UHGV virus genome: UHGV-0046228 | Reading direction: 5' to 3' (one strand) | Origin: a virus | Length of the DNA stretch: 11,963 bases | Shown here: piece after piece, positions 651-5,070 of the stretch | Numbering within the stretch: the first letter of the stretch is position 1 | Layout of the letters: the number at the start of each line of letters is the position of its first letter | Position numbers and translations under genes: made by a program | The notes under the pieces: generated by a model | What the model was told of the DNA's origin: nothing | The model's input: only the letters and a program-made list of their open reading frames with translations | Database searches by the model: none

Positions 651-848
651 TTGTATTGATTGATAGTTTCCGGAGCTTCTTTCTCGCTAGGAAAGCAAAA
701 AATTAAACAATCCTTAAGAATAGCCAGTTGATGCAAAAAATAATTAGCTTTTCAAATAGTTTTTAGCTGTTACCATTTCCACTAAGTTATGGCTTTACCT
801 CTTTGTGGATAAAAGAAAGACAAGCGGGTATGAGATTGAGTCGTTATT

Positions 849-883
849 GCGGAGAGGGGTGATGTCGTTCTCCGCGTTTTTTT
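849..883 (+). terminator. Plus-strand intrinsic terminator-like hairpin within the Q-to-holin intergenic region
   Basis: GCGGAGA (849-855), 13-nt loop, TCTCCGC (869-875), then G plus seven T (877-883). On the minus strand no U-run follows, so it is orientation-specific for plus-strand transcription. Confidence 0.45.
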
Positions 884-910
884 GGCTCGAAGCGATTTAG
901 GCCACAAAGA

Positions 911-942
911 AATAAAAAAAGCCCAAGGCGTTAACCTCGGGC
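911..942 (-). terminator. tR'-like intrinsic terminator downstream of the late promoter
   Basis: Minus-strand reading GCCCGAGG-loop-CCTTGGGC (8-bp stem with one G-U pair) followed by TTTTTTTATTTCTTT; about 120 nt downstream of the Q stop. Confidence 0.6.
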
Positions 943-959
943 TTGAATTTTTTTGGCTT

Positions 960-1065
960 CGGAACGACTGAACGGATTCCCAGCGTTAGAGATGAATCTA
1001 TCCAGTTTTTCCGCGAAATGCAATACCTATTTCCTATATATTTTCAACATTAGGGAAAATTATTT
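960..1065 (-). promoter_or_regulatory. Inferred late promoter (pR'-like) and Q-utilisation region
   Basis: AT-rich non-coding stretch between the Q stop (1066-1068) and the tR'-like terminator; minus strand has TTGAAA (1047..1042) and adjacent TATATA (1040..1035), but no clean -35/17 bp/-10 pair was found. Placement rests on position. Confidence 0.35.
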
Positions 1066-1875
1066 TCATCTCGTTACTTTTGAGAGAATGGAATCAGCCA
1101 TAGACTCCTGTTTATGGCATTCGGCGACCAACTCCTCAAATAGCGGCTGAAGTTGCTCATATGCCGCCGTTTTCTTTATCTCCGCAACAGTATTAACGCC
1201 CTCAATTACCGTTGAGAACTTAAGCCTGGCGTAACCTCTACCACCGCAGCGGTCGCAGGCTTTCATTACTGGAACGCCCTGGCGATCGCTTTCTGCCTTG
1301 TCCAGCACCTTACCTTTGCCATGGCAGCGACACGAATTGCTGATAACGCCTTTTCCGTTACACGGCTTGCACTTAACTCGCACCACCTCACGCGCCTGTG
1401 TCCAGCTCTCCCAGTCGCTTGGGCGAACGGCACGCGACATTTTCGACCAGTAAGGCGGTTTCCCCCATGGGTATGAGACCTTGTTGGTAAACACTTGCGC
1501 CTCTGTAAATCCGCCACCATCACAGCAATCACATTTTCGAGTGCTGGCAGCACTTCTTGAATAATCCTGGTATGCAAAAGCGCAGAGAACCTTAAGCACG
1601 CCTGACCGAGCTGATTCATCGAGTTCAGACAGTGCTCTGAATTTACCTGATAACTTACGTGCCTGCTCATAGAGTCTCTCCAGTGCTATATCTGGGCTGC
1701 TAATGCCGATTTTCGAGAGGTAAAGATCGAAACCAAACCCGCACTTGTGGCCAGCAAGGCCAAGCGCCGCCATAACGTCAGTGCCGGTGAGACTGTCTGA
1801 TGCGGTTGCGCGAGGAGAGTCACTGAACATCGGTGATTTAGGCGCAAAGTATTTAGCGATTGATTCGAGGTTCAT
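1066..1875 (-). CDS. Late-gene antiterminator Q-like protein
   Basis: 269-aa ORF directly upstream of the late promoter/terminator and lysis genes and downstream of nin genes; C-terminal half carries paired Cys motifs (KCKPCNGKG...CRCHGKG, CDRCGGRG) typical of Zn-binding Q-family antiterminators. Family assignment is from recall. Confidence 0.7.
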   Translation of the reverse strand: MNLESIAKYFAPKSPMFSDSPRATASDSLTGTDVMAALGLAGHKCGFGFDLYLSKIGISSPDIALERLYEQARKLSGKFRALSELDESARSGVLKVLCAFAYQDYSRSAASTRKCDCCDGGGFTEAQVFTNKVSYPWGKPPYWSKMSRAVRPSDWESWTQAREVVRVKCKPCNGKGVISNSCRCHGKGKVLDKAESDRQGVPVMKACDRCGGRGYARLKFSTVIEGVNTVAEIKKTAAYEQLQPLFEELVAECHKQESMADSILSKVTR

Positions 1876-1991
1876 TATGCGGCTTCCTTCTGTGGCTGGT
1901 GGGTTTTGGTCTGGCTGTGCTTTACTATTGGCGGCATGCTGGCGCGCTTAACGCTTTCGGCCTGGTATCGGGTTATCTCGTCTCTGGTCAT
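1875..1991 (-). CDS. Small hypothetical protein (38 aa), translationally coupled between lar and Q
   Basis: Manual translation MTRDEITRYQAESVKRASMPPIVKHSQTKTHQPQKEAA; ATG at 1991..1989 preceded by GGAGG with a 6-nt spacer; ATGA overlap with the Lar stop and TAATG overlap with the Q start. Not in the ORF track (below size cutoff). Confidence 0.4.
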   Translation of the reverse strand: MTRDEITRYQAESVKRASMPPIVKHSQTKTHQPQKEAA

Positions 1992-2194
1992 GATGGCCTC
2001 CGATTCCAGGCGCGAATTGCATCGCGCTTTGTTGGATAGGTGTCAGTTATCGGCTTAATCAAGCATTGCTTTGTTGAACAACCGGCGTAGACACCATCAC
2101 CATCAGAAAAAAGTTCTGCGCCGCCGCCACAGAACGGACACTCAAGCAGAAAAGCCCAATGAGGTAGCTTGAGATCGAATATCATTGGTTTCAT
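1988..2194 (-). CDS. Lar-family restriction alleviation protein (anti-restriction)
   Basis: 68-aa ORF with CPFCGG...AGCSTKQC zinc-ribbon-like cysteine pairs and C-terminal AIRAWNRR, matching my recollection of Lar/RalR-family proteins of Rac-type prophages; ATGA overlap with the ninG stop. Confidence 0.55.
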   Translation of the reverse strand: MKPMIFDLKLPHWAFLLECPFCGGGAELFSDGDGVYAGCSTKQCLIKPITDTYPTKRDAIRAWNRRPS

Positions 2195-2832
2195 GCTGCC
2201 TCCCGCTGTTTCAGTGCTTTGAGCTTGTCGCGGTACTCATCCCGGATCCGGATGAAGTCTTCACGGCGGTAGTTGGTCATTTCGTGGGGGCCGTTGAGCC
2301 AGTCGACGTATCCCTGACCGTAACGAGCGACCAACCCAGCTTCGTATTGCTGCGCCACGGTCGCCTCTTTGGCGGTGTACTTGCCAGCTCCGGCATTACA
2401 GGATTTGCACTGCTTATGGGCGTTGCGTTCTTCAAAGCGCAGTTCAGGGTAAGCACCTACTGTCTTGAAATGGCCGCAATCCCACTGGCCACCATGCAGA
2501 TCAGGCGGATTGGTCTCGCCGCAGCTGATGCATGGCAAATCGGCGTCGCGCGCACGGATAAAGGCGTTGAAAGCTTTCTGAGCCTGAGCCTTGTAGTGTC
2601 CGTCTGGCCTGAGCTCGTCCAGCCGCTCCGTGCGGCGTTTGCGCCCGTCCTTCTCAGCCTCGTTTTGCTCCTTGATGCGCTTAGCCGCGTCTTTCACCTT
2701 CTCCTTCTTGCGTTCTTCCATTGCGAGGATTGCGCCGTGTTCCGGGCAGCACCAGCGGATCCGGATGTCGTGGAATTTCGGCACGAAGTATTCACCGCAT
2801 ACTTTGCACTTACGGCGGGATGGTTTACGCAT
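2191..2832 (-). CDS. ninG: NinG (Rap) recombination-associated protein
   Basis: Translation from the internal Met ([16 protein letters not shown]...) parallels lambda NinG as I recall it ([17 protein letters not shown], ERNxHKQC motifs). The track start at 2910 would overlap the upstream phosphatase by 85 nt, so ATG 2832..2830 is preferred. Confidence 0.85.
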
Positions 2833-3493
2833 GGGCACCACCTTGAACCTGTACCAGCGTGAGGCTTCCGCAGAACACGGCCCCCGTATCCATGTACATC
2901 TGGTTGGCATACTTCAGGGGCTGGCGCGCAGGGGTGTGGCCGAAGATAAACAGATCAGCACCAGCTATCGGCGAGACAATGCCGTCCTGAGCGTCGCTAA
3001 CCCGTTCACGATTCCAGATGACCATGTCTTTCGGGACCGGCTTGTCGAACGCATATTCGTTATGCGGGTAGTCAGCGTGGCAGATAACGATTTTACGTTC
3101 AGCGGTAACCAGCTCGATGACGAATGGCAGGCTGGCCGATTTATGAACCAGAGCCTTAGCCAGCACCTCTTTGTCATAGTCGAGATTGAAGAACCAACCG
3201 CCACCGTTTACCAGCCAGTGATTGACGTTCCCATACTCCGATAGCCCATCAATCATCATCTGCTCATGGTTTCCGCGCACCGCCCGGAACCACGGCATAG
3301 TAATAAGCTCCAGGCACTCGACGTTTTCCGCGCCGCGGTCAACAAGGTCACCAACCGATATCAGCAAATCATGCGCCGGGTCGAACGAAACTTTTTCGAG
3401 CTCATTCATCAGCAGCGTGTAGCACCCATGCAGATCGCCGACGACGAAGATATTGCGCCAGTCAGCGCCATTAATGCGTTGATACATGCTCAT
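2825..3493 (-). CDS. Serine/threonine protein phosphatase (lambda PPase / NinI-like metallophosphatase)
   Basis: Metallophosphatase motifs GDLHG, GDLVDRG, GNHE and strong co-linearity with lambda PPase ([35 protein letters not shown]). Start taken at ATG 3493..3491 (MSMYQRING...) with AGGAG 9 nt upstream; ATGA overlap with the ninE stop. Confidence 0.9.
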
Positions 3494-3660
3494 GCGGATT
3501 TTCTCCTCGCTGCGAGACGCAGCCATTTCTGATCCACCAGGCGGGCGGTGTAATCTTTCAGGGTCGGAATGTCGGACGGCTTAATCGCTGGCTTACGCTT
3601 GCGGCGCACCGGAACGCGGAAGATTTCGTTTGTGATGACGCGAGCGAGAGGGCTAGCCAT
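3490..3660 (-). CDS. ninE: NinE-like small basic protein (56 aa)
   Basis: Manual translation [56 protein letters not shown]; resembles my recollection of NinE of lambda/DLP12 (RKRKP...WLR...ARR); TAATG overlap with the ninB stop. Not in the ORF track. Confidence 0.6.
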
Positions 3661-4317: not shown

Positions 4318-5070
4318 TCACTTCACCTTCCACTGCGGTGCTGCTGCAATCATCGCGCGGTATGCAGCCTGCATGTCGTTGTCATCATCGTCTGTGTACG
4401 GAGCCGAATCCCATGCTGCACGCATATCCGGAGTAAGCTCAACCGGCACCATCACCCAACCATCAGGAATCACCGGAGAGTTGCCACCCTGAACAGTAGG
4501 CATATCCGGACCTTTGCGAATCGCCCTGGCAAGATCGATTTGGTCGTCGTACAACCAGTCACCTGTTTGCGGATGATTGGCTTCTGCCAATTGTGCAGCC
4601 CACTCCAGGCCGTCTTTGTGTCCTTGCAGATAGTCCAGCGGTAACTCATCACTATTACTTACAGGTTCGGCCTGAAGCATGGCGGCGCGATAGGCGTTCC
4701 AGCCGACAGCTTTTCCGTGTTCAAACGCGCTGTCAAAGTCATCATCAATTTCCATCGCAGCGGGCACAGATACCGGCGCTGGCGGGGCGGTGTAGAGCGG
4801 CATTACCTCAATATTGAAGATATCCCCCTCGCTTGGACACGCCTCTGCGCTACCGTAAACCCAAGGGTGAACGACTCCGTTACGCTTGTTGATTAATCTG
4901 TGCGCCCACGCCACAGGCTCCGCTTCGAGCGATGCCAGCGCGATACGCGCATTATTAATCAGGAGGCTATCAGCAGGAGATAAAACAACATGAGCGTTAC
5001 CCTCCGCATCAATTTCAGAATTCGTAATTTTTCTGAACAGCTTTGCCAGTTCTCTGGTAATAGTGCTCAT
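4318..5070 (-). CDS. Hypothetical phage protein (250 aa), acidic
   Basis: Long ORF with ATG at 5070..5068, GGAG 8 nt upstream, ATGA overlap with the upstream ORF stop; acidic runs (EIDDDFD, YTDDDDNDM); no family recognised. Confidence 0.7.
   Translation of the reverse strand: MSTITRELAKLFRKITNSEIDAEGNAHVVLSPADSLLINNARIALASLEAEPVAWAHRLINKRNGVVHPWVYGSAEACPSEGDIFNIEVMPLYTAPPAPVSVPAAMEIDDDFDSAFEHGKAVGWNAYRAAMLQAEPVSNSDELPLDYLQGHKDGLEWAAQLAEANHPQTGDWLYDDQIDLARAIRKGPDMPTVQGGNSPVIPDGWVMVPVELTPDMRAAWDSAPYTDDDDNDMQAAYRAMIAAAPQWKVK

Follow-up and report, generated by a model that had tools for sequence, protein, structure and literature searches.

A Lar-family cassette and a Q-linked 38-codon gene as two probably separate small genes between ninG and Q of a phi80-type prophage

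The lambda Ral protein alleviates restriction and enhances modification by type IA enzymes (review PMC12707154). According to the account of King and Murray (1995) that is cited in PMC4041452, the Lar protein of the Rac prophage has the same phenotype, restriction alleviation together with modification enhancement, and it is this work that gave the Lar family its name. The Rac protein, also called RalR (Escherichia coli K-12 b1348), is the founder of PF14354 and TIGR03655, and it has been described as a non-specific DNase toxin that cleaves DNA in vitro, is neutralized by the small RNA (sRNA) RalA, and "does not inhibit restriction modification" (Guo et al. 2014, PMC4041452). A further point of reference is YlcG (NF033498, phrog_2705; DLP12 ylcG), a micro-open reading frame (ORF) of about 45 amino acids (aa), ending in GAA, in the slot before the late antiterminator gene Q; nothing relevant on YlcG or on small ORFs before Q was found in the literature searched. 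Here we analyze the region between ninG and Q in the virus genome UHGV-0046228, a stretch of 11,963 nucleotides (nt) referred to below as the window, which as a whole is a phi80-related mosaic. Two small ORFs lie in this region on the minus strand. One is a 68-aa Lar-family gene (1988..2194; PF14354), the PHI80_56 of phage phi80 (RefSeq WP_048813386.1). The other, which we call orf38 (1875..1991), is a 38-aa micro-protein gene with the product MTRDEITRYQAESVKRASMPPIVKHSQTKTHQPQKEAA, listed by RefSeq and its annotation pipeline PGAP as hypothetical protein WP_085903671.1. Our explanation, which we consider likely as a whole, is that the two are distinct small genes, a Lar cassette and a Q-linked orf38, in a lambdoid prophage of the phi80 type.

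Homologues of orf38 were collected by tblastn of phage genomes (HK639 and Enterobacter and Klebsiella phages), by blastn, which gave further E. coli prophages, and by a pattern scan of GTDB with one genome for each species, which gave 24 further loci in Enterobacter, Escherichia, Citrobacter, Lelliottia, Leclercia, Kluyvera, Raoultella, Klebsiella, Huaxiibacter, and Pseudescherichia. All counts for orf38 refer to a set of 36 loci from Enterobacteriaceae. In every one of them orf38 lay directly upstream of Q, and the Q genes belonged to four unrelated families: PF06323 in 20 loci, PF03589 in 10, PF06530 in five, and phrog_753 in one. The gene before orf38 encoded NinG in 12 loci, RusA in 11, and Lar in four; in the remaining loci it encoded a phrog_1621 protein or small proteins that were unassigned. 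The orf38 start overlapped the upstream stop by 4 nt (ATGA, GTGA, or TTGA) throughout the set; the overlap of the orf38 stop with the Q start was 1 or 4 nt in 35 of the 36 loci and 11 nt in the unverified locus from Klebsiella phage Kpn_R1. The original prediction had regarded orf38 as coupled to Lar. That claim did not survive the comparison, since 32 of the 36 loci had no Lar gene and the Lar genes of Yersinia, Proteus, and Pectobacterium had no orf38. The same distribution led us to reject orf38 as a partner or antitoxin of Lar. We conclude from these gene orders that orf38 belongs with Q and is independent of the Lar cassette. Neither the strict orf38–Q linkage across Q families, nor the independence from Lar, nor the positional equivalence with YlcG was found in the literature searched.

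Some individual records of this set deserve comment. In Klebsiella phage Mulock the orf38 homologue is followed by a 214-aa "hypothetical protein" (L007:1626-2270) with no Pfam match. This protein matches phrog_753, "anti-termination protein Q-like" (E = 3.3e-53), and a terminator and four tRNA genes come after it; because of this match and what follows the gene, we take the protein to be an unannotated Q of the fourth family. The Kpn_R1 record (L006:1501-1632) has 4 extra nt near the 3' end of orf38, by which the ORF runs 11 nt into Q; the extra nt are probably a frameshift artefact. The same probably holds for P0061, a 102-aa Lar–orf38 fusion on a Logan contig.

The layout of orf38 in the 36 loci, from a resolvase gene to Q with an overlap at each end, is the same as that of YlcG. 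In locus L038, for example, RusA, YlcG (90.6 bits on NF033498), and a phi80-type Q follow one another with overlaps of 4 nt and 1 nt. The likeness is positional only: orf38 gave no match to NF033498 in an NCBIfam search at E <= 1, its homologues did not match phrog_2705, and a relationship to YlcG was rejected on this hidden Markov model (HMM) evidence. P0068 is a natural chimera of the N-terminal two thirds of orf38 (MNHTDFLRYQAESVKRASMPPIAKHSQTKANQPK) and the C-terminus of YlcG (NFVRIYQTLGETA), and thus the two unrelated micro-ORFs evidently recombine in the slot before Q. Another composite protein, P0069 (106 aa), joins the central part of a protein homologous to the window's 250-aa protein (4318..5070, minus strand; …APPAPVSVPAAMEIDDDFDSAFEHGKAVGWNAYRA…) to the orf38 core at an "LQAE" microhomology, and from its sequence it looks like a deletion joining two distant nin-region genes.

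The Lar gene, as far as gene order can tell, is a dispensable accessory cassette of about 200 bp that separates ninG from the genes next to Q. In the E. coli prophage L009 the Q protein (WP_001047620.1) is identical to that of the window, and the order is NinG–orf38–Q without Lar, so that the earlier description of Lar as inserted between ninG and Q was a fair one. Lar homologues in Yersinia, Proteus, and Pectobacterium prophages occupy other positions in the nin region, after a DUF551 protein or small unassigned proteins and before NinE, NinB, or Q. These homologues start 4 nt before the upstream stop, and none is followed by orf38. In the window, Lar is flanked by two similar junctions of a Shine-Dalgarno (SD) sequence and a start codon, GGGAGGCAGCATGA and GGAGGCCATCATGA (1992-2204 aligned with L009:1490-1710). 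The Lar-less L009 has a single NinG 3' end with one SD-ATGA junction, GGGAGGCCGCATGA, which matches both of the junctions that flank Lar. Short repeated SD-ATGA joints of this kind may be the sites at which nin-region cassettes are exchanged.

Family membership of the 68-aa protein was examined by profile and pairwise comparisons. The pattern CPFCGG...C....C and the C-terminal AIRAWNRR, on which the original prediction had relied, are both present in ORF 1988..2194; the protein has four cysteines (C19, C22, C39, and C44) of zinc-ribbon type, followed by the AIRAWNRR helix. It thus contains the core of the Lar superfamily, a cysteine-pair region of the CPFCG ... C..C type and then a helix with WN.R. 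Pfam model PF14354 (Lar_restr_allev) matched residues 16-66 over model positions 3-57 of 58 with 40.5 bits (gathering score 28.6; E = 3.3e-10), and phrog_599, "Lar-like restriction alleviation protein", matched with E = 8.7e-11. A profile of 17 Lar homologues aligned with Rac RalR in hhalign with a probability of 94.6% (E = 6.8e-8), and BLASTP of the 68-aa protein against RalR gave 26% identity over 54 aa (E = 5e-4). The assignment to the Lar/RalR family made in the original prediction is therefore upheld at the level of the superfamily by PF14354, phrog_599, and hhalign. For calibration, the founder RalR scored 55.3 bits on TIGR03655, 53.5 on PF14354, and 166 on NF007260, the RalR equivalog model, to which the 68-aa protein had no match at E <= 1. 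The homologues found were 62-94% identical and came from Enterobacterales only. Among the 17, residues C19, C22, C39, C44, W63, N64, and R66 were invariant or nearly so. Conservation in the homologues also extended to the DGDGVYAGC turn, to IKPIT, and to AIRAWNRR at the C-terminus. A sequence search of the PDB gave no significant match. On these comparisons we place the 68-aa protein in the Lar superfamily as a member of a divergent subfamily, and not as a RalR equivalog. Neither the Lar gene nor orf38 is a chance ORF; for Lar this follows from the E value of the PF14354 match.

Rac RalR and phi80 Lar are both small proteins (64 and 68 aa, with 26–28% identity) and share the CPFCG first knuckle, a second cysteine pair, and a C-terminal A..(R/A)WN(K/R)R helix. 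They differ in the second knuckle, which is CxxC in RalR and CxxxxC in phi80 Lar, and in the DGDGVYAGC and IKPIT motifs, which only the phi80 subfamily has. The phi80 gene is part of the pR operon and sits in its nin region, whereas the ralR gene adjoins recET/xis, and RalR has RalA as a partner, whereas none was found for phi80 Lar. Lambda Ral and phi80 Lar are both small early proteins of lambdoid phages, and Ral has the function that is presumed for Lar. However, Ral is encoded in the pL operon, where phi80 Lar is not, and no sequence relationship between the two was detected: a Pfam scan of Lar at E <= 1 gave only PF14354.

Comparative data indicate that orf38 is a genuine protein-coding micro-gene. 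The frame was intact in all 36 loci, with products of 36-44 aa, and insertions and deletions (indels) of 1-6 codons kept the frame; the other two sense frames over orf38 were open in 0 and 2 of the 36 loci. Mean column entropy at codon positions 1, 2, and 3 was 0.38, 0.37, and 0.78 (0.775 before rounding), respectively. Several residues that never changed were encoded by different codons: five for R16, three each for V14 and A17, and two each for Y9 and H25. The ratio of nonsynonymous to synonymous substitution rates (dN/dS) in divergent pairs was 0.14-0.35. The conserved core is RYQAESVKRAxxPPVAKH, and divergent Klebsiella homologues were 43-60% identical over the peptide core. The product is basic (pI 9.8), hydrophilic, and 4.4 kDa in size, and because it is hydrophilic and basic it is not a membrane peptide. 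A single-sequence AlphaFold2 model has a helix at residues 3-18 followed by an extended tail. The family is small, with 14 representatives at E <= 0.001 in an exhaustive HMMER search of 1.84 billion cluster representatives, and orf38 matched no family in Pfam, NCBIfam, PHROGs, or the PDB. The original prediction of a 38-aa ORF with a strong SD, overlapping stops on both sides, and no recognizable family is thus borne out by its GGAGG, by the ATGA and TAATG overlaps, and by this absence of a database match. Two other explanations for the conservation were rejected. For a structured RNA or terminator, Rfam gave nothing credible in the region, and the predicted RNA fold of 1860-2010 was not unusually stable (z = −1.36). 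As for an antisense gene, the frame opposite orf38 was open in 30 of the 36 loci, as expected opposite a coding frame, and it had no promoter.

The junctions of the two genes are as follows, all on the minus strand. The ninG stop (TGA) and the Lar start (ATG) overlap as ATGA at 2191..2194, and 4 nt separate the Lar ATG from its SD, GGGAGG (2199..2204), which falls within the ninG 3' end. The Lar stop and the orf38 start overlap as ATGA at 1988..1991, with the SD of orf38, GGAGG (1997..2001), 5 nt ahead of its ATG and within the Lar 3' end. These two junctions agree with the earlier statement that Lar is tied into the delayed-early operon through ATGA overlaps. The orf38 stop and the Q start overlap as TAATG at 1873..1877. 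The Q gene has its SD, AAGGAAG (1883..1889), 7 nt ahead of the ATG; this SD lies in the final codons of orf38, where it forms the K-E-A codons of the C-terminus, and its nucleotides are nearly invariant across the loci.

Several observations weigh against the reading of the locus as a Lar cassette and a Q-linked orf38. On TIGR03655 (anti_R_Lar), the model named in the original prediction for an HMM check, the 68-aa protein scored 26.5 bits (E = 5.8e-6), below the cut-off of 39.6 that RalR passes; a 65-aa homologue scored 28.6 bits. The outcome of that check was therefore divided, with PF14354 above its gathering score and the named model below its cut-off. The AlphaFold2 model of Lar (beta-hairpin 25-39, strand 46-48, helix 56-64) has the topology that a zinc ribbon with a helix would resemble, at low confidence (pLDDT 60.7). 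A Foldseek search with this low-confidence model had zinc ribbons as its best matches, none of them significant (E > 1), and it was not used as evidence. The function of the founder, Rac Lar/RalR, is disputed, being either restriction alleviation or that of a DNase toxin, and no experiments on the phi80 Lar gene were found in the literature searched. Overlaps of 1, 4, or 8 nt are the norm throughout the nin operon, here and in related prophages; the overlaps alone therefore do not single out Lar and orf38, and their coupling is no special feature. The same families of Q also include genes that have no orf38 before them: L038 has YlcG instead and a Pectobacterium prophage a 98-nt gap, and so Q does not need orf38. 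Finally, close pairs of orf38 sequences had dN/dS near or above 1, on very few changes.

With the two-gene explanation in place, a role for orf38 can be proposed. Both Lar and orf38 would be transcribed with the delayed-early (pR, nin-region) operon, and each starts on the stop of the gene before it. Because the Q SD lies in the last codons of orf38 and the orf38 stop overlaps the Q start, ribosomes finishing orf38 would reach the Q start codon and reinitiate there, which would tie translation of Q to that of the nin operon. The RYQAESVKRA..AKH core is under purifying selection, which suggests that the peptide itself has a function. Since orf38 precedes Q genes of different families, it would probably act on a host component or another common factor, or on a step in translation, and not on Q itself. 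We also put forward, tentatively and as a possibility only, a broader proposal: that orf38 represents a new micro-protein family of enterobacterial lambdoid phages, obligatorily coupled to Q and active before at least four unrelated Q families, that acts on a shared step to set the timing or level of late-gene expression, with YlcG as a non-homologous analogue.

The peptide would have no function if orf38 were conserved mainly as DNA, as a short homology "linker" that sits at a mosaic joint and contains the ribosome-binding site of Q. The 3' third of the gene (CCA CAG AAG GAA GCC GCA), which contains the Q SD, is nearly invariant even at third positions, while the first seven codons vary with the neighboring module; mosaic breakpoints lie within or beside orf38, and P0068 and P0069 are chimeras of it, with the YlcG C-terminus and with another gene, respectively. 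The high dN/dS of the close pairs points the same way. However, a linker does not account well for a frame kept in all 36 loci despite the indels, for invariant residues written with two to five codons, for an entropy at third positions twice that at the others, or for the core held by the divergent Klebsiella homologues. We judge this explanation unlikely.

Somewhat less likely again is that orf38 is a cis-acting leader, in which the nascent peptide (for example, M-P-P-V-A-K-H) pauses the ribosome, sets the rate of reinitiation at Q, and so tunes the lysis clock. In favor of this idea, the peptide is small and conserved, and orf38 always adjoins and overlaps Q, before four unrelated Q families; this arrangement fits an action on translation better than one on Q as a protein. 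YlcG, a micro-ORF unrelated to orf38, fills the slot in other prophages. The idea is weakened by the loss of Pro-Pro in some family members (KQKAVAKH in P0075 and FLKPIAKH in P0077), although the core RYQ.ESV.RA..AKH is conserved. Moreover, a paused ribosome would have no significant structure to remodel in the orf38 mRNA (the z of −1.36 given above), the conserved core is about 45 nt from the Q SD and outside the footprint of a paused ribosome, and the overlaps are of the kind generic to the nin operon.

For Lar, homology with the Rac protein makes it most likely that the product modulates a host type IA restriction-modification (R-M) enzyme of the EcoKI type. By lowering restriction and speeding de novo methylation, Lar would allow unmodified replicating phage DNA to survive and progeny to be modified. 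We regard anti-restriction as the likelier role of phi80 Lar because the gene sits in an operon that is read in every lytic cycle. The rival possibility, that the phi80 protein is not an anti-restriction factor but a toxin, takes its support from the DNA cleavage, toxicity, RalA neutralization, and lack of R-M inhibition reported for RalR by Guo et al. (2014, PMC4041452). In addition, the changes that reduced RalR toxicity, at positions 49, 51, and 52, fall in its ERWNKR motif (PMC4041452), which aligns with the conserved RAWNRR of phi80 Lar. Against this, phi80 Lar is only 26% identical to RalR and does not match the RalR equivalog model on which the founder scores 166 bits. A RalA-like antisense partner was sought and not found: there was no sigma-70-like promoter on either strand in 700-3000, no inverted repeat within 700-3600 with an arm in the Lar gene (1988-2194), and no Rfam match in 900-3000 beyond weak chance hits. 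The downstream gene, orf38, occurs without Lar in 32 of the 36 loci, and thus is not a dedicated antitoxin locus. An operon read through toward Q in each lytic cycle would also be an odd site for a non-specific DNase. We therefore think it rather improbable that phi80 Lar is such a toxin.

That orf38 is a chance open frame in the 113-nt spacer between Lar and Q is exceedingly improbable and, as far as comparative data can do so, already refuted, because this short ORF, which has no family and is absent from the GenBank annotation of phi80, is conserved in all 36 loci, is called by PGAP, and belongs to a 90% cluster found on at least 1000 contigs.

The window is closely related to phi80 in this region. 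Over positions 1000-3000 the identity is 99.1%, both with coliphage phi80 itself and with the phi80 prophage carried by DH5alpha, DH10B, TOP10, and further cloning strains. Identity is 100% at the nucleotide level over 1000-2289, and consequently Q, orf38, and the 68-aa ORF are the phi80 alleles. All 18 nucleotide differences in 1000-3000 fall within ninG (2290-2891), where they cause 11 amino-acid changes, and this distribution points to a recombination breakpoint near 2290, inside ninG. PHI80_56 is the same as the window's gene in its nucleotides, its protein, and its neighbors, rap/ninG and gene 17/Q; the Lar–orf38–Q stretch shows no difference from phi80, whereas ninG, with its 18 differences, and other modules do. 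In GenBank JX871397 the 68-aa gene is labeled "restriction alleviation protein, Lar family" and orf38 is unannotated; RefSeq/PGAP calls both ORFs, WP_048813386.1 as Lar family and WP_085903671.1 as hypothetical. The exact protein sequences of Lar and orf38 were present in a large protein collection, each on at least 1000 contigs. The Lar gene is thus already known and annotated in phi80, and orf38 has already been called by PGAP as a hypothetical gene.

In the order of transcription, the genes of the region, all on the minus strand, are ninI/ppp (2825..3526; PF00149), ninG/rap, which encodes a junction-specific endonuclease (2191..2832; PF05766), the 68-aa ORF (PF14354), the 38-aa ORF (no family), and Q, a late antiterminator of the phi80 gp17 type with 269 aa (1066..1875; PF03589, phrog_127). 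The ninG frame is open to 2910, which adds 26 open codons above the phi80-annotated start at 2832 (239 versus 213 aa) and overlaps the 3' end of ppp/ninI. The shorter form is favored because the Pfam NinG match starts at residue 27.

Two hairpins in the region also came to notice. Within the Lar coding sequence, in the codons for FCGGGAELFS, there is a terminator-like 8-bp GC-rich hairpin with T6 (2113..2135, minus strand; dG −10.5 to −11.9 kcal/mol), which resembles an intrinsic terminator in the delayed-early operon upstream of Q. A scan for terminator-like sites found two where 3.1 were expected in shuffles, and the Lar allele of ET245 (GAACTGGTCGCC) lacks the T-run. This hairpin is probably incidental, and its status is uncertain. 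Sub-threshold Rfam matches at 909-1004 on the minus strand (trpB motif, 33.2 bits; isrJ, 23.8 bits) coincide with a strong terminator hairpin at 919-944, the phi80-annotated putative rightward terminator downstream of pR', and are probably chance hits driven by that hairpin.

The Lar gene itself is nothing new; what is worth noting about its presumed anti-restriction role is that it concerns a divergent subfamily and that the function of the family's founder is in dispute. With orf38, a conserved 38-codon gene lies at the decision point for late expression in a tractable phage, phi80, and its role is directly testable. The question of what a micro-ORF does in the slot before Q applies equally to YlcG. 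If the proposal of a shared step is true, that step could be reinitiation at Q or involve a common partner in the host, for example RNA polymerase or the ribosome, and if orf38 tunes Q, lysis timing in lambdoid phages would be under one more layer of control.

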